DNA of 64,000 bases from a virus. The position numbers were made by a program, and so were the translations under genes. Numbering within the stretch: the stretch's first letter is position 1; each line of letters opens with the position of its first letter. The stretch lies in IMG/VR virus record IMGVR_UViG_3300031857_000018, positions 64,001 through 128,000 of that record, one strand, 5' to 3'. A model generated the notes under the pieces. It was not told the origin of the DNA and did no database searches. It saw only the letters and a list, made by a program, of their open reading frames with translations. Of this stretch, positions 2,983 to 49,096 are shown one piece after another.

Positions 2983-3519
2983 TTACCAATCGACTAATAC
3001 CATGTTTCCGTCCCACATCATAACGTTGTCAGAACGAAAATCTAAATCTAAATCGAATTCTGGAATTTGAAGTTTATCTATATCTGTTTTTAATGTGTTT
3101 AAAAAATTATCAATTATCGGATTAATACTTCCAGCATCAGGTAAAAAATCAAATATTGAAACTTCGCCTCCTTCATCCCGAGCAAATGAAGCAAAGTCTT
3201 GCATAAATAAATCAATTTCTTTTTTTAACCGAGTTGGTAGTTCCGAAGCATTTGCCATTATGTACATGTTTTTACCATCAACATAATATACCGGTATAAA
3301 TGTAGTAAACTCATTGTATCTATCAACGATAATACTTGCTACTTCATATTCATCACGTTCTTTAGTAATCTTAAAAACTTTATCTTCTCTATCAATTTCA
3401 TAAACGCGACCGTTATCACCAGCACCAATTAAACGGAATTGTTTTTGTTGTATTTTGTCTAAACATTTCTGAATATCTGAATTTGATATTTCTTTTAAAA
3501 GTTGTTTTAATCGTATCAT
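2983..3519 (-). CDS. Protein-kinase-like protein with MIRLKxLLxE N-terminal tag
   Basis: Gly loop IGAGDNGRVY, VFKIT..E, catalytic-loop-like DFRSDNVM and metal-binding-like VLVDW. Confidence 0.65.
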   Translation of the reverse strand: MIRLKQLLKEISNSDIQKCLDKIQQKQFRLIGAGDNGRVYEIDREDKVFKITKERDEYEVASIIVDRYNEFTTFIPVYYVDGKNMYIMANASELPTRLKKEIDLFMQDFASFARDEGGEVSIFDFLPDAGSINPIIDNFLNTLKTDIDKLQIPEFDLDLDFRSDNVMMWDGNMVLVDW

Positions 3520-7129: not shown

Positions 7130-7171
7130 ATGTTTTATTCCTATTTTATATAAATATGTTATGTTAAAAAA

Positions 7172-10100
7172 TTATACCAAAACAAAACTTCCTTGATCAC
7201 TATTAGTTTGATACACCAATTGATTTGGATTTGTTGCACGCCATTCTACTACTGGCTTACCGTCAACGGTTTCAGTTGAATTAACATTGAATGCCGGTGA
7301 TGTAAGTTTAGCTCCGGAATATTTTTGATTGTCTCGACCTGCAGGTAAAAAGTCTTGCACTTGGGCAAAACTTCCTGTTAAGTTTCTGAAATTTGATACA
7401 ACGCCATACGACCCTGAACCATACGAGCTAGTACCATAATATGAACCTGAAAATGATGATGACGCTGCAAAATATGAGCCAGATGCTAAACTTAACTCAG
7501 ATGTTACTGCATCAAGTATTACTGGTAGTATTGCTTCGCTTTGCCAATATGGGGAAGATGCAGTTATATACGTGCTTCCACTTTGAATTAAGTATGTGTA
7601 TGAATATGGAGTTCCATCATACTTATCAGCAGTTGAAGCTGTTAAATATGCTTGCCATTGATCATCGTCTTGTGCAGATATAGTTAAAATTTTACCGTCA
7701 ACAGAACCTAGATAATTTATATATTCACCACTCGCAGTTGGCTGTGAATTAGTAATTTCAGCATAATATGAATTATCATGAATACGTATCTCCGGAAGTA
7801 TAGATGTTTTATTTCTTTCTAATATATTAGGCTGTATTAATACGCCGAGTAATTCATCAACACGTGCTGGCAATAATTGTTCTAATTGTTTGAAGAATGA
7901 TAAGTCAAACAATGTAAACATTTTTATATACGAATTAATATCTGTAGCTTGTTGATACTTTTTCCAATATGATTCTGCAAACTGCGTTAAACTATCATAT
8001 GAATCAGAATTAATATCTCCCGGATCACCGATATAATTATCTAAATCAATAAAACCTAATTGTGCAATGATATCTTCATCGATCATTGTTTGTGGAGAAA
8101 AATATACTCCTAGTTTTTTACTATCAATTGGAGCAACATCATATTGACTACGTTCTGCTCTAGTTTTTATATCTAATGTACCTACTAATACATTGTTTTC
8201 AATACGTACTTTGTTATCATCATATGTGCCAGCACCAATTGATACCGCATCATAGTAGTACGTTTCTTCTATAGAATCATATGGTATATTATTCGTCCAT
8301 CCGCTAAATGATGATGATATTGTAGATGCCTTAGGTTGTATCCCGAATAAACTAGCAGTTGTAGCATGATTAATATTTTGATTCAACGGTAAACGATAAA
8401 CTAGTTCATTATACGCATCTAACGAATCATATGCTCCAGGAGCTTTAACGTGATTATCAAATGATGTATTAGAAATTGGATAATTCCATATTCTGAATTC
8501 TTGTAATTGTCCTACTAATCTCGACGCCCCAGTACTAGTATCACCAAATATAATTGATCCAGATCCAGGTAATGATGCTACTGTAGATGCTGAAGCTGCT
8601 GCAACAATTTTACCATATTTAGCTCGTTTTGCTAAAATTTCTAAATTGCTGCCATTTGTTTTTAACATTAAATTTAACCAGCCACCATCAAACAATTCAA
8701 TAGAATTTGACCCAGTACCATTAATTTGTATAGTTCCACGTGTCCCAGACGTATAATCTAATGTCACTGCATTATTACCAACCTTAAACAAATTCATTGT
8801 GCTTGGCATAGTTGGATTTGTAATAACATCATCAGTTCGGAAACGAAGTTCAATTGAATCAATTGATCCCGAATAATTAGTTGTGACAGTACCAGCTGTA
8901 TTTGTAATTAAATCTAATGCATAATCAAAATTTAATTTTTCATATACCGGTGCACGTTCAATTCTAGGACCGCCATATTCTTTAATTGTAATAAGTGATT
9001 GTGGAATACCATAACAAGACAACAATGCTTGTATGCTTCGTTTAGTACCTTTTGATTTTAATAGTAATGGCAAGTTATTAACAATGCGACGCCAAACTGC
9101 GTATGTCATATTCTGGCCAGATACTGACGGATCACCTACTGAATTTGACCCGGTAAGCGGTATTCCTGCTTCTGATGTACCTAATACATACTGCCATAAA
9201 TCTTGATATTGATTACCGTCGGTTAAGTTCCAACCAAATTGTTTTGCTACGGAATATAGCAATTCATTTGGCATACCTAATTTAGGATTTTCTTCTCGTT
9301 TGTTAATTTGAGACATATGATTGATATACGTGTAAAGTATATCATAATGATGCCCAAGCATATTAACAAATGTTTCCATTGCCACATTATTCTCATCATA
9401 TCTAATATATTCAGGTACTGTGCGGATCAATGAATTTAAATTAAATGTATCGTATGCGGTCGCGTATGAATACATTGAATCAAACCATGTAGTAAATTGA
9501 CTACTAGTTAATGGGTATAATGCAAATGGATATGTCGAATTTGATTTCGGTGCCGGCGTCAAATAACTGCCGGTGATTCTGGCTACATTTGGTGATTCAT
9601 GTGGCACAGGATAAGTAAAAATCATTGACGATGACTGATAGTATAAATACTTTTCAAAATCATCAAATCCACCAATTAAATTTGTTTTTTGCAATGTATA
9701 ATCTGCGGCATTAGTAGTTGCAACACTACCCGATATTAATGCGATTGCCGCAGATTGTGAATTATAGTATTCAACTAATGATAATTTGTATCTGAAATTT
9801 TCTAAACGTTCTGTTGCTGAACTATAGAATACAAAATTATTAAAATCTGAATAATCAATGTTTAATTTTACTCCGGATAAACTTCCAGAAAAATATGAAT
9901 CGACAATTTGCTGTGATGTATTAATCGATGACCCGAGTAAATCAGTCCAATTTTTTAATCCAGTAGTTGTTGAAGTATTGTATGAATAATTTGCATACCA
10001 GTTAGGACCAGCTAATACATTTTGTTCAATTTCAATTTCTTTTGCATTTATATAAACATTATCAACAAATGGCTCTTTTTGTTCTTGAGCAATCCAACAT

Positions 10101-35217: not shown

Positions 35218-35460
35218 TTACACGGGACAAGCTATCTGCTGTGGGAACAGGTTCAATGCATGCATCTGCGCTGGCGGCATGCTCGGTATGCCTAACGCCT
35301 CGCGGAGGTCATACAATGTGGCCCACTGCGTACGGCTGCGGGTTACCTGGTCCATTGTGATGCTGCTGTCGCGGCCTGCTGCTGCATCCAAGTCGCGGTA
35401 GTGTTTCCATGCGCGGGCTTCTGCTAACTGGATGTCTTTAATCATTTGTGCTTTTGTCAT
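35218..35460 (-). CDS. Early hypothetical protein
   Basis: AAGAGAGACA-ATG leader. Confidence 0.65.
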   Translation of the reverse strand: MTKAQMIKDIQLAEARAWKHYRDLDAAAGRDSSITMDQVTRSRTQWATLYDLREALGIPSMPPAQMHALNLFPQQIACPV

Positions 35461-35511
35461 TGTCTCTCTTTTTATATTAGGTTAATTGGGTTACTTGGGT
35501 TGCTGTGTTAA

Positions 35512-35718
35512 TTAGTCTAGCATATCTGCTGCTGCGCCACCTGCCATGATGCCGGCAAACAATGTTGCTGCTGCTCCTACCGGTACTACCAATGCTGCTA
35601 CTGCTAAGCCGGCTACTGGAAGAATTGCTAGGAAGGTTAATGCGGTTGCTGCTGCGATGCTTAATACGACTGCTGCGACTGCTACTACTGCTGCGATAAC
35701 TTTGATTTCGTTTTTCAT
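35512..35718 (-). CDS. Early small membrane protein
   Basis: Two Ala/Val-rich TM segments; own promoter and GAGAGAGAT-ATG leader. Confidence 0.65.
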   Translation of the reverse strand: MKNEIKVIAAVVAVAAVVLSIAAATALTFLAILPVAGLAVAALVVPVGAAATLFAGIMAGGAAADMLD

Positions 35719-35847
35719 ATCTCTCTCTTTTAATTTTAATAAAGATAAGGTTTATTCTGATAGGATCCTAATCTTTTGTTACTTTTTTTACTGCAGAAAT
35801 CCGACGCCATTTCTGACGCCGGTTCCTTATTTGAGAGATATGTTTTC

Positions 35848-36795
35848 CTATTCTGCTGCGATGATTTGCTCTGCTACCATCATTGTGGGATCCTCAAAGC
35901 CCATTGCACATATGCGGGCTGCTTTAATAAAGCTTCTGAGGTTGATGTCAATACCCGCATATTTTTTATCCAGGTCCTTCATAATGCTGAGTGCCTGCTG
36001 CTTCGCTGCCAATGGGATGCTAGGCTCCATTGTCGACATCAATTGCTCCATGCGGGTAAACATCTGCGTGGTGTTCATTGAGATGTCTGACACAAAGCTG
36101 CGTGAGCGAATTGCTGCATCCAATTTTGATTGGTGGATGTTGCTGATGAAGATAACACGGCCGGTGAACTCAAAGTGTGCCGGGATAGGCTCGCCAAACT
36201 CATCCTTAAGCGGCTTGCTTGAGATATAAGAGATCTTGCGTGTGTCATAGCTATCCAACGCCGCCTTCAAAAGGTTCACTGCATCCTCGTCTTTGAATAC
36301 CGAGTCACAGTCATCAAAGATAACAATCTTGTCGGAGTTCTGGTAAAGGGTAATAAACAACCCGGCTGCTGTGGTGCGCCCTTTAAAGTGAACAAACTCA
36401 TATGACTCTCGCAAGCCCATTCCCTTAAGCGTCTCCTTAACCAGGTGCGTCTTACCAACACCCGCCATACCTGTGATTACCAATGACGGTTGGATTCCGC
36501 GACCCACCATCTTTGTCAGACGAGTAAGGTTGTCAAACATTACCTCAGGATCTCTGCTCTCCACCACTGACAGGAAAGACATCTTAGCCGGTGCTGCCGG
36601 TGCTACCGATACTCCTGCCGTTGCTGCTGCTACTCTAACAACACGCCCATTTGCTCCAACCATCAACACTTCGCGGTTGGCTTCTGCACTGCGCAATTGC
36701 ACGTCGCGGATTAAACCCTTTGGCGCGAACTCACCTGTGTTAACATTCTTCGCCATTAACTTCCCTTTTACTCTTACTGCTTCAAATACGTTCAT
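35848..36795 (-). CDS. AAA+ ATPase
   Basis: Walker A GMAGVGKT, Walker B IVIFDDCD, sensor-1 FISN, Arg finger AIRSR. Confidence 0.88.
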   Translation of the reverse strand: MNVFEAVRVKGKLMAKNVNTGEFAPKGLIRDVQLRSAEANREVLMVGANGRVVRVAAATAGVSVAPAAPAKMSFLSVVESRDPEVMFDNLTRLTKMVGRGIQPSLVITGMAGVGKTHLVKETLKGMGLRESYEFVHFKGRTTAAGLFITLYQNSDKIVIFDDCDSVFKDEDAVNLLKAALDSYDTRKISYISSKPLKDEFGEPIPAHFEFTGRVIFISNIHQSKLDAAIRSRSFVSDISMNTTQMFTRMEQLMSTMEPSIPLAAKQQALSIMKDLDKKYAGIDINLRSFIKAARICAMGFEDPTMMVAEQIIAAE

Positions 36796-36929
36796 CTCTC
36801 TTATATGGTATTTAATTAAATGCTCTTAAGGCCTTTCCCTAATTGCTTACATAAAAATAAGGCAAATTCTGATAGGATCCTAATCTTTTGCAAACTTTTT
36901 TTAACTTTTTTTCCTGGTAGGATCCAGGC

Positions 36930-37472
36930 CTATTCGACCCGGAAGATTGCTAAGGCTTTGCGCTGATCTCTACCCTTTGTCAGGAACAATGCATCCAATT
37001 GGTCAGCGTTGTCATATATCTTTCCGTCTCGGATTGCTAGGGCATGCTTTGCCACTATCACAATAAAGGATCCTTTCGGATGCTGAGCTAAGAACTTGCC
37101 TACGGTGAATCCTGAGAAGGTGCCTCCTCCCTTCGGGTACTTCAGGTTAAGCAACACTCCACGCTCCTTTGCCTTAGCCGGTGTGATTGGAGTGCGGCTA
37201 AAGGTTCCTAATGGACGGATCTCTTTGCCGGCCAACTTCTCTCCAGCGGTTGCCATTGTCTTAAGCTTCATCGGTGCACCCAATGTGCCTTTACCTCTTT
37301 GGCGGCCGAATCGGCTAGCAACCAACTCGTGTGCTTCGTCATAGCTAACCTGGCATGCATTCATCACTGCTCGAACGAAGCAGTCATTGTTCTCGCCTTT
37401 AGCCTTCTTGTCTGTGTCCTGGATAGCTGCGCTTCCTACTACGAACTTCATTTTGAAATCAACCTTTTTCAT
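36930..37472 (-). CDS. Early hypothetical protein (possible Cys-His papain-like fold)
   Basis: NDCFVRA...HALAI.DG..YD. Confidence 0.55.
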   Translation of the reverse strand: MKKVDFKMKFVVGSAAIQDTDKKAKGENNDCFVRAVMNACQVSYDEAHELVASRFGRQRGKGTLGAPMKLKTMATAGEKLAGKEIRPLGTFSRTPITPAKAKERGVLLNLKYPKGGGTFSGFTVGKFLAQHPKGSFIVIVAKHALAIRDGKIYDNADQLDALFLTKGRDQRKALAIFRVE

Positions 37473-37519
37473 ATATCTCTCTTTTATTTGATTACGTGGG
37501 TTACTCAGTTAGTGGATTC

Positions 37520-37708
37520 TTATGCCATATCATCCGACACATCCAACACTGTCCATTTTACATTCTGCTGGATGTATTCCGTTACATCTTCCGGATCGAA
37601 TCCATCTGCTACCAATGCACGTGTAATGCTAGCCGTTGCCATTTGCAATTGCGTCATTGCCTCTGTGCTAACCAATCCATCCATTCTGTCAAACATTTCT
37701 TTTGTCAT
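37520..37708 (-). CDS. Early hypothetical protein (start reassigned to 37708)
   Basis: Promoter and leader precede MTKEMFD. Confidence 0.65.
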   Translation of the reverse strand: MTKEMFDRMDGLVSTEAMTQLQMATASITRALVADGFDPEDVTEYIQQNVKWTVLDVSDDMA

Positions 37709-37788
37709 ATCTCTCTCTTTTAATTTTAATAAAGATAAGAAAAAAAAGAACACGTGTCAAGCATTTCGGTAACTTTTTTTAAACTTTT

Positions 37789-37995
37789 TTATAGGCCGGA
37801 AAACTCCCCATCTACGAACAATAAGGCTTCTCCAGGCTCTAGTCCGGCAACTGTGATATTGAGGTAACCGTCATTGGGATCCGAGATGTTGTCCATATCG
37901 AGGACCATATAGTCGACTCTTTGTTGATCCAATATTGTCAGGAACCCTTTTGCCTGGAAGGCTTCTGCTGTTGCGATGATGTCTTGTCTTGTCAT
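37789..37995 (-). CDS. Early hypothetical protein
   Basis: AGAGAC-ATG leader. Confidence 0.6.
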   Translation of the reverse strand: MTRQDIIATAEAFQAKGFLTILDQQRVDYMVLDMDNISDPNDGYLNITVAGLEPGEALLFVDGEFSGL

Positions 37996-38068
37996 GTCTC
38001 TGTGTGTTTCTCACGTCCGCAAGGGCCGACATTTCTGCCGACCCGGGACTCATATTGAGAGACATGAT

Positions 38069-38521
38069 TTACTCTTCTTCGTCGGTCGGTGTAAACTCCG
38101 TAAACCCGATGGTTAATGTGTGGCCCATTGACCCGTCCCAACCCGGTGCTGGTTGATCGTCGTCAGCTTCCTCCTCGTCAGCTTCCTCGTCCTCCTCAAG
38201 CACAAACTCTGCTACTACTGCTTCCACGTGACTCATTATTTCATAGATGTCAATGTTAACCTCAGTGAGCTCGATGCGGTTGTCATAGTTAATCTCAAAG
38301 CACGCGCTGTCTTTGTCGATGATCGAGTCGCTATTGTAATCCAACGCTCTTTGGATCTTGTCGCCGATGGTTGCTGCGAGGTCCTCAGTGATCCCAAACA
38401 CTTTGACTGTCTTTTGCTCCGCCTCCAACTGCTGGATAAGCTCGATCACTTTGTCAATGTCAACTTGTGAAGACAACGCCTTTGCTCCTTCTAACTGTGC
38501 AATTAAATTTTCTTTTTTCAT
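38069..38521 (-). CDS. Early acidic hypothetical protein
   Basis: Own promoter; D/E-rich. Confidence 0.7.
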   Translation of the reverse strand: MKKENLIAQLEGAKALSSQVDIDKVIELIQQLEAEQKTVKVFGITEDLAATIGDKIQRALDYNSDSIIDKDSACFEINYDNRIELTEVNIDIYEIMSHVEAVVAEFVLEEDEEADEEEADDDQPAPGWDGSMGHTLTIGFTEFTPTDEEE

Positions 38522-38602
38522 ATCTCTTATTTTTTAATTTATATAAATTTAAGGTTAATTTTGATAGGATCCTAATCTTTTAGAAACTTTTTTGAAACTT
38601 TT

Positions 38603-38863
38603 TTAATTGAGGTTTATGCCGCGCTTAAGGTCCTCAGTTGCATTGTTTCGGTCAATCTTAGCGCTTAGCACTAGTGCTATTGCGTCTCCTAAATCATCCA
38701 AGTCACCGTCCTTTGTCTTTGCCACCAACAAGGTGATCATCAACAGACCCAACTTTTTGAACCCTTCGTCACCTGTGGTGATTGCTAGGGTGTTACACAA
38801 TTCAACTGCGCTTTCGATGTTGTCTACTAACTGCTTTGCCATTTTTTCATTCATCTCTCTCAT
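38603..38863 (-). CDS. Early hypothetical protein
   Basis: Own promoter. Confidence 0.6.
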   Translation of the reverse strand: MREMNEKMAKQLVDNIESAVELCNTLAITTGDEGFKKLGLLMITLLVAKTKDGDLDDLGDAIALVLSAKIDRNNATEDLKRGINLN

Positions 38864-38936
38864 TTGTCTTATTTTTTAATTTATATAAAGATAAGCATTT
38901 TTTTGTTCGGTGTCAACCTTTTTGTTAACTTTTTTT

Positions 38937-39167
38937 TTACTTGCTTTTGCACGGGCAAGACTCCGAGTGCACTACTCCACTGTCATGATTGACGCCATCA
39001 AATGCTAGGTACTCATGCCCGTCGAATTTAATTACTCGGATATCAATTCCTTGTATCTTGATAGGTTGTGATGGCGCTTCACAGCTTGTCAATAATGCTA
39101 CTACGCTGCCAAACAATACTAATCCCGTTCCGGCTACTACTAAGAATGTTTTCAATCGGTTTTTCAT
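38937..39167 (-). CDS. Early putative lipoprotein
   Basis: Hydrophobic stretch + LLTSC lipobox-like motif; DGHEY...GVVHSESCPC. Confidence 0.65.
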   Translation of the reverse strand: MKNRLKTFLVVAGTGLVLFGSVVALLTSCEAPSQPIKIQGIDIRVIKFDGHEYLAFDGVNHDSGVVHSESCPCKSK

Positions 39168-39238
39168 ATATCTCTCTTTTTAATTTTAATAAAGATAAGC
39201 AAAATAATGCTCGGATCCTAATCTTTTTGAAACTTTTT

Positions 39239-39403
39239 TTATCCGAAGAATCCTCCGCTTATAAGGATCCATATAAGGATCCCGGCGTTTATCAATGCTC
39301 CGAATATATTGAATTTGCCGGTTCTGGGCTTGCCATGCAAGTAAGCGGATGCTAATAGATTAAGTCCCATTATTACTAATAAAATGATTTGTGGTGCTCC
39401 CAT
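39239..39403 (-). CDS. Early small membrane protein (54 aa, not in ORF track)
   Basis: Manual translation MGAPQIILLVIMGLNLLASAYLHGKPRTGKFNIFGALINAGILIWILISGGFFG; AAGAGAGAAAC leader. Confidence 0.65.
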   Translation of the reverse strand: MGAPQIILLVIMGLNLLASAYLHGKPRTGKFNIFGALINAGILIWILISGGFFG

Positions 39404-39428
39404 GTTTCTCTCTTTTTTTTAAGGTTTA

Positions 39429-39569
39429 TTATTTTCTGCTATCAACTAAAAACATCCAAAATTTCGTGTCAGGATACTTTGCTTTGTATATCATGTAATC
39501 CACTCGGATCGCCACTGCCGCAATTGCTACTACGGCTCCGATCAATAATGCTAACTTCAACTTTCTCAT
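39429..39569 (-). CDS. Early small membrane protein (start reassigned to 39569)
   Basis: Promoter and leader precede MRKLKLALLIG. Confidence 0.6.
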   Translation of the reverse strand: MRKLKLALLIGAVVAIAAVAIRVDYMIYKAKYPDTKFWMFLVDSRK

Positions 39570-39648
39570 ATCTCTCTTTTTATAATACTTAAAGATAAGA
39601 ATAATATCAATGCGAGTCAACCTTTTTCCAAGAAAAGTTTCAACAAAG

Positions 39649-40389
39649 TTACAGGTACTGTTCTAGCAGTTGGATCCCCGGTAGCTTGGCCATTTCGGTC
39701 TCTGCCTGGCGAACCAGCTGTCGTGCTCGTTCTCCTGTCACTCCCATTTCCTCAGCAATCTGATCCATACACTGTGCATACTCACGCCCAATGCCATAGA
39801 AGCGAGTCAATGCCTCTCGTTGCTTGGGTTTAAGCTGTGTCATCGCTCTTTGTAGGTCGTATTGGAGATCTGCTGTCTCACGTGCGGATTTCACAGCATC
39901 TGCAGCCAAGTATCGATCCGCATAGGTTTCTTTGTTCTCATCATCGCCTACCGGAGTGCTGATGCTTTTGATATGTTGCTCCTCAGTTGCTGTCTTGTGG
40001 CTAGGGATCCTTACTACTCTGGATAAGTCATTCAGAGCCTTTTGGATCTCTGCTCTGACATACCATACCGCAAAGGTAATGAACTTCACACCCTTATCCG
40101 GATTGAATCGTTCTGCGGCTTCGAAGAGTCCAATGTTACCAAACGCAATGATGTCTTCCAACAAGAGTCCCATTCCTTGATACTGCCGGGCTACCTGCAT
40201 CACAAACCGAAGGTTGCTTTCAACCAGGATGTTAATGGCTTTGCGGTTACCTGCCTGAGCGGCTCTGCCTAACTCTTTCTCTTGTTCGCGGTCCAGGTAT
40301 CCAAACTTCTTAATCTCCTGCATATATTTCTGCGTGCTAGCAACATCCGTTACTATTGCTCCATTACTTACGTGAATCTTTTTTCCCAT
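39649..40389 (-). CDS. Sigma-70 family RNA polymerase sigma factor
   Basis: Region 1.2 YMQEI, region 2 LVESNLRFV...GNIGL..AAERF.P.KG.KFITFAVWYVR, region 4 IAEEMGVTGERARQL. Confidence 0.93.
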   Translation of the reverse strand: MGKKIHVSNGAIVTDVASTQKYMQEIKKFGYLDREQEKELGRAAQAGNRKAINILVESNLRFVMQVARQYQGMGLLLEDIIAFGNIGLFEAAERFNPDKGVKFITFAVWYVRAEIQKALNDLSRVVRIPSHKTATEEQHIKSISTPVGDDENKETYADRYLAADAVKSARETADLQYDLQRAMTQLKPKQREALTRFYGIGREYAQCMDQIAEEMGVTGERARQLVRQAETEMAKLPGIQLLEQYL

Positions 40390-40494
40390 AACCTCTTTGT
40401 CTATCTCTTGTTAATTCGTTTGCTTCTTGCCACATTATCTTGATACAAGCGACGCACACTAACCCGAATGTCGTCGCCACTAAAACACCGGATA

Positions 40495-40692
40495 TCATTT
40501 CCCGGTGCTTAAGAATTTGAAACTTACTCGGATCGGCTTCTCAACCTTTGCGCGGTACTCTGCGTTGCGCTCTCCTTGCTTCTTTGCTTGTGCTACAGTG
40601 GTAGTGTTACCTCCTGCCTTTGCATCTCTCTGGAACTGACCCATTACCGCTCCTTGTCTTTCGAATCCTGAATTTCTGTCTTTCTTTGCCAT
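40495..40692 (-). CDS. Early basic hypothetical protein
   Basis: Own promoter; probably co-transcribed with the sigma gene. Confidence 0.6.
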   Translation of the reverse strand: MAKKDRNSGFERQGAVMGQFQRDAKAGGNTTTVAQAKKQGERNAEYRAKVEKPIRVSFKFLSTGK

Positions 40693-40757
40693 CTCTCTTA
40701 TTATTTAATTTCTATACTTAAAGATAATGAATTAAACCATGCGTGTCAACCTTTTTG

Positions 40758-40997
40758 TTAACTTTTTTTAAACTTTTCTAAAACTTTTTTTGCAGTGGGA
40801 GGCGCTATGCTGTTAGTGAGTGCTTTGTATTGCACTATATCTAATCTAGCTTCCACATTTGCTAATGCAACTCCCACTTCGTCATCCTGCTGAAATAAAT
40901 CAAATGATTCCATAGCCTTCCTCAATTCCGTAACGGTTGTTCTTAAGCTTCTAATTTCATTTCGCAAATCGTTGATTTCTTTAACTTCTTTTTTCAT
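40758..40997 (-). CDS. Early coiled-coil hypothetical protein
   Basis: Own promoter and leader. Confidence 0.6.
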   Translation of the reverse strand: MKKEVKEINDLRNEIRSLRTTVTELRKAMESFDLFQQDDEVGVALANVEARLDIVQYKALTNSIAPPTAKKVLEKFKKS

Positions 40998-41079
40998 ATC
41001 TCTCTTTTAAATTAATACTTAAATATAAGGAATAAATCAATGCGTGTCAACCTTTTTCCAAGAAAAGTTTAAACTTTTT

Positions 41080-41454
41080 TTACTCGAATACTCGCACTCG
41101 GCCGGATTGGAATCCATTACCAGCCTTTGTTGTTTTAAACTGACACCATATTGAAAACTCATTTCCGTCTTCCACCCACTCCACGATAGCATCCAATCTG
41201 TCAATGATGCGCTGCAGCTTAGCTTCGGTTAGCAATCCACTTTCCAATAAAGGTCGGCAACCAAACGATGCACAACCTCTAGCTTCATTCGCCGCAATCC
41301 GGATCTTTTGTGGGACTAGCTCTTCAATCGCAGCATCTAGTGCCTCATCATCAACCTGGAATGTATCATATCCGGTTAATAGTTTCGTGTACTGTGCTAC
41401 TGCATACTCTGCCATTGCTTCAACGGCTCCTGGAATAAATTGTGTCTTTTTCAT
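41080..41454 (-). CDS. Early hypothetical protein
   Basis: Own promoter and leader. Confidence 0.65.
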   Translation of the reverse strand: MKKTQFIPGAVEAMAEYAVAQYTKLLTGYDTFQVDDEALDAAIEELVPQKIRIAANEARGCASFGCRPLLESGLLTEAKLQRIIDRLDAIVEWVEDGNEFSIWCQFKTTKAGNGFQSGRVRVFE

Positions 41455-41515
41455 ATCTCTTATTTTAATACTTAAAGATAAGCAAAATAATGTTCGGTGT
41501 CAACCTTTTTGCAAA

Positions 41516-41704
41516 CTATTTTTCAGGAATCTCATCTGAGTCATACATCTCGAATTCTCCCGGACCACCTTCTTCGACAAATGATTCCTGGAACCCGTGC
41601 CCGTTTTGCACCAATGCCAATGCTTCCTCTTCGGTCTCAGCAAAGATCTCATAATACTGGATTACCGTTGTTTTGATGCGCTCTTCGAATCTAAATACTT
41701 TCAT
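41516..41704 (-). CDS. DpnD/PcfM-like small acidic protein (start reassigned to 41704)
   Basis: YEIFAETEEEAL; similar to 45285..45467. Confidence 0.5.
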   Translation of the reverse strand: MKVFRFEERIKTTVIQYYEIFAETEEEALALVQNGHGFQESFVEEGGPGEFEMYDSDEIPEK

Positions 41705-41956
41705 TGGTTTATTTTTTAAAGTCCTGATTATAAATGTTGCTGATGCTAACAATCAGCGCTAAAACTAAAACTATTCCTACTACCTCCATGACTCGTCGTT
41801 TGGTGGCCAAAATGATATTTGCCACCACCCACCTGCGATTCGAGTAAGCGGTCCTGCTGTGTACCCACCCGATGGGTATTTGTTCATTTCGCGGGTAAGA
41901 TCCCGGAACAACTCGGCTCTGTCATTTGATTGTAATACTATCATTGTCTCTTATTT

Positions 41957-42205
41957 TTAGTTTATTACCTCAGCCCAACTGCGTGTGAATCCACCCTCAA
42001 TCTCATTGTATGACTTGTTTAAAGCCGTTACCAATGCTGTGATGCTTTTCGGCTTCCGATTGATTTTATGATTCCAACTGTTGCCACATTCCAGGGTGTA
42101 TCCAAACACATTGCCTACTAGGTACTCAACAGTACCCTCATAAATCGTTTCCCGGGATCCTGACATCCCTGACTTCGTAATCTTAACTTTAAATGATTTT
42201 GCCAT
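41957..42205 (-). CDS. Early hypothetical protein
   Basis: Own promoter and leader. Confidence 0.65.
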   Translation of the reverse strand: MAKSFKVKITKSGMSGSRETIYEGTVEYLVGNVFGYTLECGNSWNHKINRKPKSITALVTALNKSYNEIEGGFTRSWAEVIN

Positions 42206-42265
42206 ATTTCTCTCTTTTTAATTTTATTAAAGATAAGCATTTTTAGATTAGGATCCTAATCTTTT

Positions 42266-42475
42266 TTAAACTTTTTTTACAATTCCTGCTGCTAAAAGTG
42301 CCTGGATAAGCTCCTCATTCGGCACAAAGCCATTCGGCATAAATTGATCCAGGTAAGTGTCGGTTACTGGTGCCTCCGCATCCAATTCCTCATTAAACTC
42401 GGCTTCCAGGATCCCTTCCAGGAACTGCGCTAGCTCTGCGGCTAGGGTAATGTCAATCTTAAATTCTCTTTCCAT
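42266..42475 (-). CDS. Early acidic hypothetical protein
   Basis: Own promoter and leader. Confidence 0.6.
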   Translation of the reverse strand: MEREFKIDITLAAELAQFLEGILEAEFNEELDAEAPVTDTYLDQFMPNGFVPNEELIQALLAAGIVKKV

Positions 42476-42529
42476 TTCTCTCTTTTAATTTATATAAAGA
42501 TAAGCAAAATAACCATGCGTGTCAACCGT

Positions 42530-42739
42530 TTAGGCAACTTTTTTCAAAAAATATTTCAACTCATATTGAGCTGAGATCGGATCCTCATCATATGCTCCTC
42601 CGGCCCACTCGGCTACAAATGCACGAAACCCATTGGAATTCTTTGTGTTGATGTCAGATGCTTTAGCTGCTGCTAATTCTTCCGCGGAAAAAGTAACCCA
42701 TGTACTCAATTCCAAAAACATGTCATTCAATGTTGTCAT
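42530..42739 (-). CDS. Early hypothetical protein
   Basis: Own promoter and leader. Confidence 0.6.
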   Translation of the reverse strand: MTTLNDMFLELSTWVTFSAEELAAAKASDINTKNSNGFRAFVAEWAGGAYDEDPISAQYELKYFLKKVA

Positions 42740-42790
42740 ATATCTCTCTTTTTAATGATACTTAAATATAAGAATAATTCTGATAGGATC

Positions 42791-42985
42791 CTAATTTTTA
42801 GGCAACTTTTTTAATAAAGTTCTTCGCTTTGCTTTTAGCTTGCGGATCTCTAAACGGCGCAGGTATGGTCCGTGGTTATAGGTGCTTCCTGCCCAAGCCA
42901 TCGTCCAAACCGTGTTGTCGCGCTGAAGGCATTCAATGTGATGATCGATGCGGTCTATTGCATCCTGGATCTCTTTTGGTGTCAT
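42791..42985 (-). CDS. Early hypothetical protein
   Basis: Own promoter and leader. Confidence 0.6.
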   Translation of the reverse strand: MTPKEIQDAIDRIDHHIECLQRDNTVWTMAWAGSTYNHGPYLRRLEIRKLKAKRRTLLKKLPKN

Positions 42986-43066
42986 ATCTCTTATTTTTTA
43001 TAATACTTAAAGATAAGCAAAATAACCATGCGAGTCAAGCATTTTGCAAGAAAAGTTTAAACTTTT

Positions 43067-43372
43067 TTAATAATCATTTTCCAACAAAAATGCCTTGACG
43101 GATCCGGATTTATTTGCAATTAAATTTTCCATTTCTGCAACACTGCCGCGGAAATAAAATATTCTCGACTTCAAGCCCGGCACTCGGATTTCAATGCGCT
43201 GATATAATTTCTTCCACCACCCGCGTCTCAGCATATCCGCATATTTTTTATTTGGATCCTTTGATGTGTTTCGGTCATACCCAAAAACTTCGCGCTGGAT
43301 CCTGGTCTCGGATGCTAACACGGTTAGGTCCAAAAAATCAACAATCTGGTTCACTGAATTTCTTTTTGTCAT
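43067..43372 (-). CDS. Early hypothetical protein
   Basis: Own promoter and leader. Confidence 0.6.
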   Translation of the reverse strand: MTKRNSVNQIVDFLDLTVLASETRIQREVFGYDRNTSKDPNKKYADMLRRGWWKKLYQRIEIRVPGLKSRIFYFRGSVAEMENLIANKSGSVKAFLLENDY

Positions 43373-43450
43373 ATATCTCTCTTTTTAATTTTATTAAAGA
43401 TAAGCAAAATAATATTAGGATCCTAATCTTTTAGCAAAAAAGTTTGCTGG

Positions 43451-43849
43451 CTAATTAAAGCCAACAAACCCTTTCTCTAACACAATATCTAATTCCTCTG
43501 CAATCTCTTTGAGGCGGTAATAAGCAGCCTCCTCAATCTCATCCTCAACCGTTTCTGCCACTTGGCCAATTGAATAGCCAAATCCAAATCCATAACAGGT
43601 AACAGCTTTCTGGATGCGGATCATTTCCTCAGATGCAGCGTTCTCCCAATCCATTACTAAAAAGTCTGCTTCATAAAAGTCATCCTCATCCGTTTCTTGT
43701 GAGCGCTCACATTCATCAAATGCTGTGGCCCACAATGTGTGCACTTTAGCCTTTACTACCTCAGCCACCTCATCATTGTGGTCATACATTTCGCGGCTCC
43801 ATGGTTTTGTGATTTGGATCCCGTACTCTACTTTTGCTGCTTTTTTCAT
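43451..43849 (-). CDS. Early acidic hypothetical protein
   Basis: Own promoter and leader. Confidence 0.65.
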   Translation of the reverse strand: MKKAAKVEYGIQITKPWSREMYDHNDEVAEVVKAKVHTLWATAFDECERSQETDEDDFYEADFLVMDWENAASEEMIRIQKAVTCYGFGFGYSIGQVAETVEDEIEEAAYYRLKEIAEELDIVLEKGFVGFN

Positions 43850-43929
43850 ATTCTCCCTTTTTAATTTATATAAAGATAAGGTTTATTTCCGTGCGTGTCA
43901 ACCTTTTTGGTAACTTTGTTTGAACTTTT

Positions 43930-44172
43930 TTAATCCTCATCCTCATATTCGCCAAACTCAAATTCACATTCATCAATTACTTCTTCGAAGCACTGTGCTA
44001 GCCGATCGGCTTCAGCATCACTTAATTCTGCCTCATCCAAAAAACGATCAAACACTCCTATTAATCCTTCGCTTTCAATAAAGGAATCCATTAATTCTAA
44101 TGCCGAGTCTCCAGCTACATCTGTAAAGTTGTAAATTCTCCCGTACAAGTCTTGCAATTCTTCTCTTTTCAT
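43930..44172 (-). CDS. Early highly acidic protein (possible DNA mimic)
   Basis: Very D/E-rich 80 aa; own promoter. Confidence 0.6.
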   Translation of the reverse strand: MKREELQDLYGRIYNFTDVAGDSALELMDSFIESEGLIGVFDRFLDEAELSDAEADRLAQCFEEVIDECEFEFGEYEDED

Positions 44173-44246
44173 ATTTCTCTCTTTTTTTTAATTTTAATAA
44201 AGATAAGGAAAAGATCAACGCGAGTCAACCTTTTCCCAAAGTTTTT

Positions 44247-44375
44247 TTACATATTTTTTAAATGCTTCAAAAACAATTTTTTAACTTCGGCGTCTGACAT
44301 TGCGCTAAGCGTGTCAAAACTAATTCCGCATACATAGTGCAACATGTGCTCGTGCTTTTCTCTTGGTGTTTGCAT
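44247..44375 (-). CDS. Early hypothetical peptide (42 aa, not in ORF track)
   Basis: Promoter + AATAAGAGAT-ATG; MQTPREKHEHMLHYVCG... Confidence 0.55.
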   Translation of the reverse strand: MQTPREKHEHMLHYVCGISFDTLSAMSDAEVKKLFLKHLKNM

Positions 44376-44473
44376 ATCTCTTATTTTTTAATTTATATAA
44401 AGATAAGAATAAAAACCATGCGTGTCAACCTTTTTGCAAGAAAAGTTTAAAAAAAGTTTCTGAGGAATATTAT

Positions 44474-44841
44474 AAAGAAAAAGGATCCCAGGAATAAGAG
44501 AGAGAAACCCGGGATCCATTCTAACACAGAGACTAGCTCTGCCTTACCTAATGCGGCCGATCCGCCGGGAGTGTCTTTCGAGCACTAGGATCCCGGACCC
44601 TGTCAGCCTTTGAGAGATATGTTGTTGGCACGTCTGATTTGTATTGCTACATCACAACCAGATTAAGATGCTACTTGATCACGTGCCTAAGTTGATTCTA
44701 AATAAAGAGCCGGAGGTGTTAGCTTAGTGCTGTCCCTGAGGAGTGCGAAGCTTGTGGTTACCGGCTCTTAATATTATGTCGTGATCCTTGCGGTCGCCTC
44801 TCTTACGGCATTTGGTTGGATCAACCTTCCTTCTTATTTAC
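44474..44841 (-). ncRNA. Putative structured non-coding RNA (~370 nt)
   Basis: Promoter TTGGAA(44876-44871)-N17-TATAAT(44853-44848); consecutive stems; 10-bp terminator stem with U-tract at 44474-44517; no ORF of 60 aa or more. Confidence 0.7.
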
Positions 44842-44883
44842 TTTTATATTATATGAAATCTAAATCTAGATTCCAACCTCGAT

Positions 44884-45780
44884 CTAAATATTATTCTAAA
44901 AATCAATCTAAATATACATGTATATCGGTCTAAAAATAGACTAGGTGGTTACTCTGTATAAGTACAGAACCGAACTAAAACCCGTCTAAAAGCACTTTTC
45001 TTCTAAAAATAGGACTAAAAATAGAACCGGATTCGATCTAAAAATAACCTAGAATTGGACTAAAAATAGCGGGGAGGAGCTGGATCCTTCTAAAAATAAG
45101 AGGTATTGGTCTAAAAATAGAACCGGTTCCTTCTAAAAATAAACGCCCCTAATACGCGTGATCGAACATATACACACTATATGCACGGATCCTTCTAAAA
45201 ATAAGGTACTCCGTATAGCTAGTGATCTGAACGATCGATCTAAAAATAGCGGGGAGGAGAAGCGGATATCGATCTAAAAATAGCCTATTCGTCCTCAGTC
45301 TCTTGCACATCAACTTCCATGTCCCCATGGGACTGTTCTAATTCCAATTCGCCCGAGCTAAGCTGTTCCCAGGCTATATCCTCAGCCGCTTCTTCCGACT
45401 CTGCCTCAATCTCAGTCTCTGCATACGCATATGAAACGCTCGACACTCTAATTATATACTTTGCCATATTCTAATTATATACTCTAAATATAAGAATAAT
45501 AATTCATATATCCTAGCATTTTGTTCTAAAAATAACACGATATTGGTCTAAAAATAAACCGGAAAAGGTTGGATATTCGAATAACCTTTTTACGCACTTC
45601 TAACGAGGTCTGCGTCGTTACTGGTAACTGTATATGCCTGGTGCCGCGATATAGAGCCTATGCCCCCCGTACTTGTTGTATTGGGAGGGAGATATATATA
45701 ACCATCTTCCTTTCTGGATACTAGACACCATTTCGTCTAAAAATAAACGGGTGCGTCTGCGTATTTTAATCTAAAAATAA
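44884..45780 (+). repeat. Array of CTAAAAATA direct repeats
   Basis: 15 exact copies at 44930, 45003, 45015, 45038, 45060, 45090, 45111, 45133, 45195, 45240, 45274, 45526, 45548, 45737 and 45771, plus degenerate copies. Confidence 0.92.
45285..45467 (-). CDS. DpnD/PcfM-like small acidic protein
   Basis: EIEAESEEAAE; TAGGAT-N17-TATATT promoter upstream. Confidence 0.55.
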   Translation of the reverse strand: MAKYIIRVSSVSYAYAETEIEAESEEAAEDIAWEQLSSGELELEQSHGDMEVDVQETEDE

Positions 45781-45845
45781 CAAGGGGATGCTGAGGAAGC
45801 TGTAGTGCTAGACACTGGGCTCACACTCTGACAGGCTACTACTAA

Positions 45846-46088
45846 TTACTGCATATAGCTTGTGATCACTTCTCCTACCATGTATGCTGCTACTCCTATC
45901 ATGCCTATCACGCATATAGCTATATAGCCTAAGAATCCTGCTAACATGTACAGTTCCCAGCTAGTTGGTTCACGTCGCGTGTCTGGATCTATTAAGGGCA
46001 TCATTACTCTGCCTACCAGGTACGTGATGCTTAATATTAAAGCTATCGTTGTTATTCCTAGTATTGTCTTCATTATTATCATTTGCAT
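45846..46088 (-). CDS. Small two-TM membrane protein
   Basis: Two hydrophobic helices. Confidence 0.55.
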   Translation of the reverse strand: MQMIIMKTILGITTIALILSITYLVGRVMMPLIDPDTRREPTSWELYMLAGFLGYIAICVIGMIGVAAYMVGEVITSYMQ

Positions 46089-46156
46089 TATTTTTCGTTA
46101 GAAGCTTATCCGTAACCGTACTGCTTTACTAATTAGTTTGACAACCGGTTATCATT

Positions 46157-47245
46157 TTATTCATAGTTCCTGATTGCCGTTACCTTCGGGAAGCGTGGCT
46201 TTCCATCCGGTGTGATTTGAAAATACTTAACCGTTGCTTGCTGACCAACCAACGTGTCTCGCTCTGCCCACAATTCTTTGAGATACTCCCAACCGCCATT
46301 AACCGATGCTGTGAAGCGATCTCCGATGGCTGTTTCAAATACTAAGGCACCTACCATTCCTGACAGGTTGCCGTTGCCTTCTTCATATCCGACAATAGTA
46401 TACTCTTCGTCTGTGAATGATTTGTGTTTCATCAGTGACTTGGATCTTTTGTTTTCATAAGGTGCATCTAACCGTACCATTTGTCCTTCATATCCTGCAG
46501 ACATATACTCATTGTATAATTCCATTAACTCAGTTTCAGATTCAACAAAGTCTGTAAACACAACCACACAACACGCCGGCAATGACATTTTATTCAATGC
46601 TCCGTTCCTAACGGAAAATGGTGTATGGTGTGATGGTAGATCATATACATGATATTGGATAACCGCGGCGCTGTCAATAAGATCCTGAGCCGTTGGTTTT
46701 GTCTTTTTAACTAGGGACACAATGGCATTAAAATCATTTGCATACTTATCCGCATACAACTCTCCGTCTAGGATCAACTCCGGATCGGCTTCAAACAATG
46801 GCTTTAGGCCTTCGAAGATGTGTGGTGCTGAAATGATAGGTTTACCTGCTCTGGTCCACATACCATCGGCACGAACAATGCAACGAATGCCATCCAGCTT
46901 AGGTTGTGAATACACAGGGTATTGTACTTTGTCTGCGAAGTCTTCCCATTTGTGGGCAAGCATTGGCTTGAACATTGTGCCGCTATCTACTGCTGCAGCA
47001 TCGGCAAAGTAGCCACGCTCGGTGCGCTTCTTCCATTCTGCTTTGGCTTCTGTTAAGGCTTGTTCCTCCGGTGAGGACTCATTCACTTTGCCAATGTTCT
47101 TGGCTTGGCAGAAGGTCCATTCGGTTGTGGTGATTGCTCCGTCAACATATCCGGAGTGAGTGCGGTAAGCATCGCCCATTACTTCGATGGTGTGCTCGAG
47201 TAATTTACCTGTGGTTGCTCTTTTGTACAAGGTCTGTAATTTCAT
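46157..47245 (-). CDS. lig: ATP-dependent DNA ligase
   Basis: PMLA, motif I QPKLDGIRC, LDGELY, YHVYD, YEGQMVR, KRSKSLMK.K and PRFP. Confidence 0.93.
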   Translation of the reverse strand: MKLQTLYKRATTGKLLEHTIEVMGDAYRTHSGYVDGAITTTEWTFCQAKNIGKVNESSPEEQALTEAKAEWKKRTERGYFADAAAVDSGTMFKPMLAHKWEDFADKVQYPVYSQPKLDGIRCIVRADGMWTRAGKPIISAPHIFEGLKPLFEADPELILDGELYADKYANDFNAIVSLVKKTKPTAQDLIDSAAVIQYHVYDLPSHHTPFSVRNGALNKMSLPACCVVVFTDFVESETELMELYNEYMSAGYEGQMVRLDAPYENKRSKSLMKHKSFTDEEYTIVGYEEGNGNLSGMVGALVFETAIGDRFTASVNGGWEYLKELWAERDTLVGQQATVKYFQITPDGKPRFPKVTAIRNYE

Positions 47246-47308
47246 GTCTCTTATTTTTATACTTTAAATATAAGAATTATTTTTCATATATCCTAGTATT
47301 ATTCTAAT

Positions 47309-47962
47309 TTAAATCCACATAGCATGTTCTGTATATAACCGTAGTTGATGTTGATTAATGTATGGAGCTAATACGTGTTGCGATGTCGGCGTAAGCCTAA
47401 AAGTCCATGTTCTCCATACACGTTCATAATGAAAATGAATATCAACAGGAATGTGGGTTCGTTGTGGTTTATATTCTAATTCAACCGGATAGTATGTATC
47501 AGGTGTTGCATTACTAGGAAACAAAGTAAACCATCGATACGTGCACGGAACTCCTGCAGTAATACCCATCAAACCTTTTGATATCTTCAAGCAAATTAAT
47601 CGTTTCTGATCGAACGATTCCATTGGTATATCAATATTCCTATCCGCAATATTTAATCGACCATGTTTTTCAAACTGCGTAACATCTAATACCATTGAAT
47701 CTCGCGCCGGCTTGGATACACTTAAAAAATGTGAAATGATTCGATGGTTTGGTAATATGTCATCGAATAAAATCTGTTGCACCTTAGGGTACGTCGACGT
47801 TTGCATCGATTGTTCAACCTTTGAATACAGATCCGGATAGAATGCAGAAATAAACCGTTCAGCACCCTCGAACACAACTGGTTCTAACATCTCAATTTCT
47901 TTATGCTTTGCATCAAATGTCGCCGGATCATATACCGGTACTCTGAATTTCATTGAACTCAT
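47309..47962 (-). CDS. Hypothetical protein
   Basis: 217-aa ORF in operon. Confidence 0.55.
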   Translation of the reverse strand: MSSMKFRVPVYDPATFDAKHKEIEMLEPVVFEGAERFISAFYPDLYSKVEQSMQTSTYPKVQQILFDDILPNHRIISHFLSVSKPARDSMVLDVTQFEKHGRLNIADRNIDIPMESFDQKRLICLKISKGLMGITAGVPCTYRWFTLFPSNATPDTYYPVELEYKPQRTHIPVDIHFHYERVWRTWTFRLTPTSQHVLAPYINQHQLRLYTEHAMWI

Positions 47963-48157
47963 CTATTTGCTATTAAACCATTTTTTATAAACCTTGTTGT
48001 CTTTAATTGCAGGTGGTCGGTGACGGAGGTTAGGATCCGCCTTCATTATGCGATTGTATGCATCTTGCATATTCAGCGCCGCTTTGTTCTGATATGGCAC
48101 ATGTTCTTGCCGCTCATTATCAAAATTCTTATTTGGCTGAATTGCACTCATACTCAA
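47963..48157 (-). CDS. Hypothetical protein
   Basis: 64-aa ORF abutting the next gene. Confidence 0.45.
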   Translation of the reverse strand: MSMSAIQPNKNFDNERQEHVPYQNKAALNMQDAYNRIMKADPNLRHRPPAIKDNKVYKKWFNSK

Positions 48158-48608
48158 CTCCTAATGCATCGATCAATGCTTTAATTGCTTCAAATTCAGT
48201 GAAGTGCAGTGATATCATTTTGCTATCTGAAATTGCAATATCCCATCCTTCGCCGTTAGTCCATTCAGTAACCTCGACATAGTCATGTTTCTTGTGCCAT
48301 GCATCATGCAGATTCACAAAGGCTGATGCTCGTTTACTTAGTTCAATTTTCTTGCTATCGATCCATTCTTCGGCAGCTTCTAATCCTTCTTCTACCTTAC
48401 GTTGTTTCTCAATATGCGCTCGGATATCACCAATAGTATGAATACCTTGTGCTGAGTTATCAGTTGGATACACTTCAGTAGCATCGGGTAATAGTTCTGC
48501 TATCAAATCCGTAAACCACATTTCGGCTCCCAATACACCGCCTCCTACTCTGCGCGCGATGTCGCGGGACTCGCCATCTTTTAGTAATACTGCAAATGTT
48601 GTGCTCAT
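48129..48608 (-). CDS. Hypothetical protein (start reassigned to 48608)
   Basis: EVTEWTNGEGWDI C-terminal domain. Confidence 0.6.
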   Translation of the reverse strand: MSTTFAVLLKDGESRDIARRVGGGVLGAEMWFTDLIAELLPDATEVYPTDNSAQGIHTIGDIRAHIEKQRKVEEGLEAAEEWIDSKKIELSKRASAFVNLHDAWHKKHDYVEVTEWTNGEGWDIAISDSKMISLHFTEFEAIKALIDALGVEYECNSAK

Positions 48609-48612
48609 AGTC

Positions 48613-48879
48613 TTATTTTTTATCTTCAAATATATCATCGACGCCTAACAGGTTGTTGTAGGTTTCTCTCCAATTGGTAATTACTGGTTGCAACACAAAA
48701 AAAGAAACGGCACCTGCAGGAGCCCAAACCCACCACAAATGCAATGGAGCTACTACTACGATGATAGTTGCTAATAGTCCGGTTGCTAATGTCATCACCG
48801 TAAACAAAGTTACTAGGAATCTTTTAAACATTGTCTTCATTGTTTTCATTTTCTTGTTGTTTTTGTTGTTCATATTCAT
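48613..48879 (-). CDS. Two-TM membrane protein (holin candidate; start uncertain)
   Basis: Two TM helices near the transglycosylase gene. Confidence 0.45.
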   Translation of the reverse strand: MNMNNKNNKKMKTMKTMFKRFLVTLFTVMTLATGLLATIIVVVAPLHLWWVWAPAGAVSFFVLQPVITNWRETYNNLLGVDDIFEDKK

Positions 48880-49096
48880 AACGACTAACGATCAATTCTC
48901 TTTGCATTCTGCCTCGATTGCTTTCTCTGGCTTGCACCTGCTGATAGGCTTCTTCTAATTCTTCAGTGGTCATGTATGCAATCTCTCTTTGAGTTGGTGT
49001 CATGAAATCACGTGGATCAATAGACTGCTGTAATTGTTTTAACAATGCATCAAACTGCTCTTGTTCTGACATTTCTGTGTTTTGTTCTTCAGACAT
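48824..49096 (-). CDS. Hypothetical Q/E-rich protein
   Basis: TTGGAA-N17-TATAAT promoter upstream. Confidence 0.5.
   Translation of the reverse strand: MSEEQNTEMSEQEQFDALLKQLQQSIDPRDFMTPTQREIAYMTTEELEEAYQQVQARESNRGRMQRELIVSRYEYEQQKQQENENNEDNV

Follow-up and report, generated by a model that had tools for sequence, protein, structure and literature searches.

Early phage genes are known to be shut off by proteins, RegA and RegB of phage T4 among them, or by changes in transcription. In T4 the RegA repressor and the RegB endoribonuclease inactivate many early mRNAs as a class, by way of a short motif that both recognise where translation starts (PMC3014915). In function these proteins are the nearest counterparts of the locus described here, from which many early mRNAs would likewise be addressed as a class through a motif in the start region. 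They differ in being proteins that read a Shine–Dalgarno-type or loose site, whereas here the reader would be an RNA and the tag is a private one that is not of the Shine–Dalgarno type. Repeated pyrimidine-rich hairpin loops address the ribosome-binding sites of many mRNAs in the CcsR or ‘cuckoo’ RNAs of Alphaproteobacteria and, as C-rich loops, in RNAIII and RsaE of S. aureus. The locus shares with these RNAs the use of repeated hairpins that display one pyrimidine-rich loop, probably to many mRNAs. Theirs, however, mimic the universal anti-Shine–Dalgarno sequence and act on host genes, whereas here the tag is private to the phage, and tag and loop covary. CcsR RNAs are matured from a 3′ UTR that lies behind a small ORF (PMC8034643). 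The nearest design is found in the c4 antisense RNA of P1 and P7 (and in the CI RNA of P4), a structured phage RNA whose loops pair around a ribosome-binding site and block translation (PMC12197685). Like c4, the RNA considered here is encoded by a phage, is structured and has loops complementary to a translation start region. Unlike it, the RNA is ~370 nt long rather than ~77 nt, has its own promoter instead of being processed from the operon under its control, and faces a leader common to ~20 genes rather than one site in the immunity operon of a temperate phage; the Rfam model of c4 does not match it. The icaR mRNA of S. aureus has a 3′ UTR motif that pairs with its own ribosome-binding site. 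An arrangement of similar kind is found around a MoxR-like AAA+ gene in a distant clade of phages. The icaR case differs from a stand-alone RNA serving a gene class, as it concerns a single gene and a single molecule. Our literature search yielded no account of a phage RNA directed against a leader common to a temporal gene class; non-coding RNAs are not mentioned in a paper on bS21 phages, which are freshwater myophages with Bacteroidetes as their predicted hosts (PMC9723584).

The window analysed is a stretch of 64,000 nucleotides, bases 64001–128000 of a 169-kb IMG/VR phage record that is rated complete. Nearly all of its genes lie on the minus strand. Matches to PHROG families include baseplate and tail proteins, a DNA ligase (46157–47245) and a sigma-factor-like protein (39649–40389). 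The protein relatives are distant, and a database of cultured phages gave no match to the region at the DNA level. The original prediction placed a transcription unit on the minus strand, running from a TTGGAA-N17-TATAAT promoter (44876–44848) to a terminator (44517–44474) and holding no long ORF, and the sequence agrees in every particular. The features of the locus are as follows.

44883–45783, plus strand: iteron array directly upstream of the RNA promoter, with 13 exact copies of TCTAA-AAATA and 15 of the 9-mer core
44848–44876, minus strand: promoter of the RNA unit; −35 element TTGGA-A at 44876–44871, spacer of 17 nt, −10 element TATA-AT at 44853–44848
44474–44841, minus strand: predicted RNA of ~368 nt (~370), delimited by the promoter and the U tract
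44782–44823, minus strand: conserved 5′ domain from the RNAalifold consensus; outer helix 44823–44818/44787–44782, inner hairpin 44810–44807/44798–44795
44705–44769, minus strand: conserved long hairpin with an internal-loop module; arms 44769–44761/44713–44705, compensatory changes in four of seven outer-stem pairs
44627–44687, minus strand: hairpin private to this phage, an insertion relative to other family members; 7-bp stem 44687–44681/44633–44627
44611–44621, minus strand: anti-leader seed 1, in a linker; 11 nt led by C-A-U and complementary to the last seven leader bases and the start codon
44557–44606, minus strand: conserved core domain; closing helix, invariant G/C helix and inner hairpin with a GNRA tetraloop at 44579–44576
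44483–44517, minus strand: terminal hairpin; 10-bp stem 44517–44508/44492–44483 (one G-U pair) and a 15-nt U/C-repeat loop, 44507–44493, which is anti-leader seed 2
44474–44482, minus strand: U tract of the intrinsic terminator, read from the sequence
35218–44392, minus strand: early gene block holding the predicted targets; ~25 short ORFs, most with their own promoter

The 5′ end of the RNA was placed ~7 nt past the −10 element and the 3′ end at the U tract. Between 44520 and 44880 the minus strand contains no ORF of at least 30 aa; near the 5′ end of the RNA in the window a start codon is followed by one codon and then a stop. Comparison with relatives gave no sign of a small-protein gene, no frame being kept: in L139, L212 and L028 the nucleotides are conserved, but the frames vary in both length and phase. 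The RNA region has a G+C content of 0.45–0.49 against ~0.32 in its flanks. The minus strand folds with z = −3.4, none of 100 shuffled sequences being as good, and the plus strand with z = −1.9. The unit thus has a promoter and a terminator of its own and no conserved ORF, as would be seen, at the level of sequence, in an independent transcription unit. The view that it specifies a non-coding, structured and strand-specific RNA is supported by these observations.

The iteron copies in the adjoining array all have one orientation, are often spaced at 21–22 nt or multiples thereof, and the 10-mer occurs nowhere else in the 169-kb genome. Degenerate iteron halves lie within the 17-nt spacer of the RNA promoter. 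The array may serve as an origin, or a regulator of the RNA promoter may bind there. On its other side the RNA unit is followed by the early gene block, and here the claim that about 20 genes at 35.2–44.4 kb begin with a shared AAGAGA(GA) leader proved sound. The leaders of the block consist of an A-rich run, a purine repeat AAGA-GAGA or its variant AUAAG-AGA, then 0–3 nt and AUG. On its mRNA strand the 169-kb genome has 16 copies of the purine 8-mer and 20 of the 7-mer, in both cases within 35463–48982 of the window and directly before start codons. The complement of the 8-mer is present in a single copy on the transcript strand of the whole genome, and that copy lies inside the terminator loop of the RNA.

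The original prediction also assigned the RNA to a promoter class (TTGGA) other than that of the early genes, and the two classes can indeed be separated. Early promoters combine an extended TTGAC −35 element, 17 nt and TATCT-T, and most leaders lie ~20 nt behind them; all 15 such promoters are confined to 37.7–44.4 kb of the window (37760–44428). Promoters of the TTGGA class, which have a TTATA-TT box, are found at scattered sites in the genome and drive the RNA unit, a GroEL-like gene and others. The use of this class here fits a later or differently controlled expression of the RNA, to judge by promoter sequence. Both classes fit the −33/−7 pattern of Bacteroidota (the early ones as T-T-G, ~20 nt and TA-n-n-TTT), and the host is probably a member of that phylum.

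Related units were collected by scanning viral contigs for the iteron pattern (two or three repeats) and for a conserved early protein encoded at 43451–43849 of the window, which gave 80 further loci. The RNA unit recurs in ~20 related contigs, nearly always directly downstream of an iteron array; an array of 5–11 copies precedes it in more than 12 of them, and a promoter of equivalent type lies upstream in 17 of 20 non-duplicate related units. In L139 the RNA directly follows a gene and has neither array nor promoter. By nhmmer and covariance model the unit is found once per contig and always on the strand of the early genes. With R1, a covariance model built on the 3′ half, scores lie between 142 and 31 bits; its sole match in the window is 44477–44623 on the minus strand (123.5 bits). 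A scan for the stems alone returned unrelated matches only. The eight loci related through the ligase gene (L002–L009) contain no RNA unit; in the syntenic L002–L005 it is missing downstream of the ligase gene and from the sequenced parts, which are 12–31% complete. A search of Rfam 15 excluded the known families: in the window four tRNAs elsewhere were the only hits above threshold, the best score in the region being 25.5 bits against a cut-off of 60, and five relatives yielded nothing except one tRNA. The RNA would accordingly represent a new family, apparently limited to a group of large phages, probably of Bacteroidota.

Compensatory changes are seen in the long hairpin, in the helices of the core domain and in the anti-leader hairpins. 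In the core domain 96% of cells are paired, compared with 29–42% when the partners are slid, and three pairs show compensatory change; the tetraloop is GAAA in the window and GCAA in L212. Four consecutive stems had been proposed. The 9-bp stem is real and covaries; the 7-bp stem is also real but is an insertion private to this phage; the remaining two are part of the conserved core (44606–44557). It had further been proposed that two unpaired segments are complementary to the early leader. The complementarity holds for both segments, the unpaired state in full for the loop only. The seed 2 loop (44507–44493) is unpaired with a probability of 0.97, and it is invariant across 15 distinct stems. 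For seed 1 (44621–44611) the mean probability is only 0.55; this seed is predicted to be half-sequestered, since the five bases in its middle are paired (P ~0.8) with 44801–44797, a purine run in the 5′ hairpin loop that resembles the leader. The purine run in the inner-hairpin loop (44797–44806) is present only in the window and L141, and the RNAalifold consensus structure leaves seed 1 unpaired. The pairing of seed 1 with the purine run may, from the folding model, represent a structural pseudoknot or a self-masking device. Seed 1 itself is present in the window, L141, L139, L067, L107, L135 and L037, with a one-base variant in L212.

The anti-leader loop is the most conserved part of the unit. 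Family members carry one or two hairpins with U/C-repeat loops, and the terminator is either the last anti-leader hairpin or a separate hairpin. Eighteen anti-leader hairpins from 14 contigs have 15 different stems, with three to five pair types at most stem positions; 22 of the stem pairs are G-U pairs, which are mismatches on the opposite strand. The core of the loop, a U/C repeat followed by U-A-U, is invariant across the hairpins. As the stems vary while the loop is kept, and as the G-U pairs fit one strand, the loop sequence must be under selection and the RNA must be read from the strand of the early genes. A plain intrinsic terminator was considered and rejected, since a loop of 13–17 nt is conserved while its stem changes. 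In relatives the hairpin is duplicated or is followed by a separate terminator (L028, L047 and L053), and it is therefore more than a terminator.

Leaders were then gathered phage by phage and set against the loops. Where the loop has a U-U-A-U extension, all 12 phages possess the matching second leader variant (50 of 140 leaders); where the extension is missing (L028 type, L047, L116 and L091), that variant accounts for 2 of 53 leaders. The co-occurrence of loop variants with matching leaders, which had been named as a check on the proposal, is therefore observed, with a Fisher P of 1.3e-6 that is uncorrected for phylogeny. The phage L091 has a private loop, one base shorter and altered in its 3′ part, and a matching private leader in 7–9 of its ~20 leaders. 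In an all-against-all matrix the L091 leaders pair best with the L091 loop, and the L091 loop ranks lowest against the leaders of 11 of 13 other phages. Three loop types thus track leader types. Distant phages that lack purine-repeat leaders showed no such hairpins within 4 kb on either side of the marker gene.

Duplex energies between the seeds and the start regions were ranked over 232 called ORFs, 36 of which belong to the early block. Among the 20 lowest energies 16 belong to early-block genes (P = 1.2e-11), and among the 30 lowest 20 do, as had been anticipated for a genome-wide target ranking. The energies run from −9 to −15.6 kcal/mol, and strong matches cover ~16–20 of the 36 early-block ORFs, fewer than the entire early programme that the original prediction had in view. 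Seeds shuffled by mononucleotide in some cases equal or exceed the number of targets of the real seeds (maximum 25, against 22); this control is weak because U/C shuffles remain roughly complementary to purine leaders. An unbiased test for 10-mers complementary to a 7-nt leader plus start codon, on the gene strand of 80 loci, gave 24 matches against 13–41 in controls and is uninformative because of A/T-rich chance matches.

Anti-leader sequences are also found outside the RNA unit. The window contains a second copy of seed 1 behind an AAA+ gene, an arrangement seen again in L139 and, as a variant, in L047. A distant clade (L255/L282, L264, L271/L273 and L285) uses an A/C-repeat leader on one to four genes per locus, and after the stop codon of one such gene there follow C-A-U, the complement of the leader and then a terminator. 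The coordinates are as follows.

35801–35842, minus strand: second seed 1 copy; seed at 35842–35831, 5 nt after the stop of the AAA+ gene 35848–36795, and terminator hairpin at 35822–35801
L271, 365–1560: distant-clade locus
L264, 674–1850: distant-clade locus
L255, 517–1700: distant-clade locus
L285, 1174–3440: distant-clade locus

Three of the four phages have here a gene for an AAA+ ATPase of MoxR/CbbQ-like type; in L285 the product is a protein of 746 aa without a Pfam match. The AAA+ protein of the window is only marginally similar to this ATPase and we do not claim orthology. No real ORF starts at the distant-clade anti-leader on the opposite strand. The idea that the inverted repeats around the gene are transposon ends was discarded, as the protein is an ATPase of the MoxR/CbbQ type and not a transposase. 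The arrangement suggests 5′/3′ pairing within one mRNA. On sequence grounds the distant clade appears to show the same design in another ‘dialect’, though with the partner leader on the same mRNA.

We consider it probable that the structured ~370-nt RNA is a trans-acting antisense RNA which occludes the shared translation start sites of the early genes. That the RNA is transcribed, at what time, that it pairs in vivo and that it represses are points which we infer. The RNA would be made from a promoter class other than the early one, possibly under the control of the adjacent iteron array. Once accumulated it would pair over 8–10 bp with the very short early leaders, and the resulting duplex would block binding of the 30S subunit and so shut down early translation. 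Repression by occlusion would be expected because, with a leader of ~20 nt, the duplex would cover the AUG or the positions immediately upstream. Some observations sit less easily with an antisense RNA. The duplexes are short and A/U-rich. An antisense seed would require nothing nearly as elaborate as an RNA of ~370 nt whose conserved core is capped by a GNRA tetraloop; a core of such size and conservation may indicate that the RNA has functions beyond that of a seed carrier. Neither the tight linkage to the iteron array nor the peptide ORF found in some relatives is accounted for.

The elaborate structure is what a protein decoy or scaffold would lead one to expect, in which the U/C loops and GNRA core bind a protein such as ribosomal protein S1 or a phage RNA-binding protein and the complementarity is a by-product of low complexity. 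Both the size and the conservation of the RNA greatly exceed what the carrying of seeds calls for, its repeated loop motifs recall sponge RNAs of the CsrB type, and shuffled U/C seeds still match purine leaders. This explanation is nevertheless improbable: the complementarity of seed 1 extends over the start codon and the precise spacer in front of that codon, and loop and leader variants change together, for which a protein-binding loop gives no reason. The linkage to the array would follow if the array were a replication origin and the transcript primed or activated it, as at the T4 origins or with RNA II of ColE1, the structure serving to stabilise the RNA or to regulate priming. The unit does abut a unique, helically phased array of one orientation, both here and in more than 12 related contigs, and iteron halves lie inside the promoter spacer. 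The direction of transcription, however, is away from the array, the RNA of L139 has neither array nor promoter next to it, and the conserved anti-leader loops and their covariation with the leaders are left unexplained. We rate an origin transcript as low in probability as a decoy; it would be compatible with an antisense role. Chance, or a plus-strand coding feature whose leaders provide the matches, is exceedingly improbable. A 15-codon plus-strand ORF does start at 44619 behind a perfect copy of the leader, and the original prediction had named such a micro-ORF as grounds for abandoning the proposal. The plus strand has no promoter of the early type there, the ORF differs in length and sequence in L141 and is absent from other relatives, the 22 G-U pairs would turn into mismatches if read from the plus strand, and all terminators and covariance-model matches are on the minus strand.

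Two further explanations accept the pairing and give it another role. In one, the anti-leader acts in cis as an insulator: placed before a terminator, it pairs on read-through RNA with the leader of the next early gene, which is then translated only from its own promoter. Both anti-leaders in the window lie ~110 nt upstream of a well-matching early leader (44507–44493 precedes the gene ending at 44375, and 35842–35831 that ending at 35718), and the leader complement in the 3′ UTR of the same gene in the distant clade points to same-molecule pairing within this phage group. Only two of the many terminators in the early block carry an anti-leader, though, and the complement motif is unique on its strand; a diffusible RNA would better account for the display in large loops, the duplicated hairpins and the dedicated promoter. 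We think an insulator unlikely. In the other, pairing with the leader activates, by stabilising the early mRNAs or by recruiting them to ribosomes that do not use Shine–Dalgarno sequences. The pairing evidence is the same as for repression, the promoter looks recognisable to the host RNA polymerase and could fire early, and the ribosomes of Bacteroidia, the likely class of the host, ignore Shine–Dalgarno sequences according to two papers (PMC7797042, PMC9976891). Against this, in a leader of ~20 nt a duplex with seed 1 would mask the start codon, and one with seed 2 the 8–10 nt just upstream of it. Leader duplexes at such positions block initiation in known sRNA cases. Activation seems to us slightly more doubtful even than a decoy or an origin transcript.

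Returning to the antisense RNA, we put forward tentatively, as a proposal that may well prove wrong, a wider scheme in which this group of Bacteroidota phages makes the switch from early to later expression through an RNA ‘address’ system. A private tag unrelated to Shine–Dalgarno sequences would be read and silenced by an RNA from an iteron-controlled promoter, tag and reader would co-evolve, and the principle would be reused in 3′ UTRs with other tags. If true, the lytic programme would be timed in a new manner, by a single RNA that reads the tag shared by all genes of a temporal class, and the near-identical non-Shine–Dalgarno leader on dozens of unrelated small genes would be accounted for. 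For Bacteroidota, in which little is known of post-transcriptional control, it would also supply a natural ‘one RNA, many genes’ switch that can be programmed. The conserved domains and the natural variants of seed and target make the idea directly testable with reporters and compensatory mutations.

The 5′ part of the unit is variable in the family. It is a conserved two-helix domain in the window, L141, L212, L139, L028 and L188, and a small ORF for a hydrophobic, single-helix-like peptide of ~27–45 aa in L116, L112, L053, L067 and L180. In the relatives with the peptide ORF the anti-leader hairpins are situated in its 3′ UTR, a dual-function or 3′-UTR-derived arrangement. The internal-loop module has A-A-C-C-A-C-A-R-G on one strand and A-A-C-A-C opposite. 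Its hairpin is located 5′ of the core in some members and 3′ of it in L112, L053 and L234, a permutation of domains. The sites of the module are as follows.

Window, 44705–44769: internal-loop module
L112, 5804–6008: internal-loop module
L053, 2141–2356: internal-loop module
L234, 3214–3388: internal-loop module

We examined whether the long hairpin mimics the 3′ end of 16S rRNA, that is the anti-Shine–Dalgarno sequence, and rejected this, as C-C-U-C-C is not conserved in L028, L188, L112, L053 and L234, in which only the A-A-C-A-C core is kept. Inspection by eye likewise rejected a hammerhead-like core domain, the required core motifs being absent from relatives. Two tRNA-like elements were noticed among the relatives. 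One, recognised by eye, lies inside the L135 unit at 3330–3420; the other is a weak 112-nt tRNA match within the iteron array of L112, at 7145–7256.
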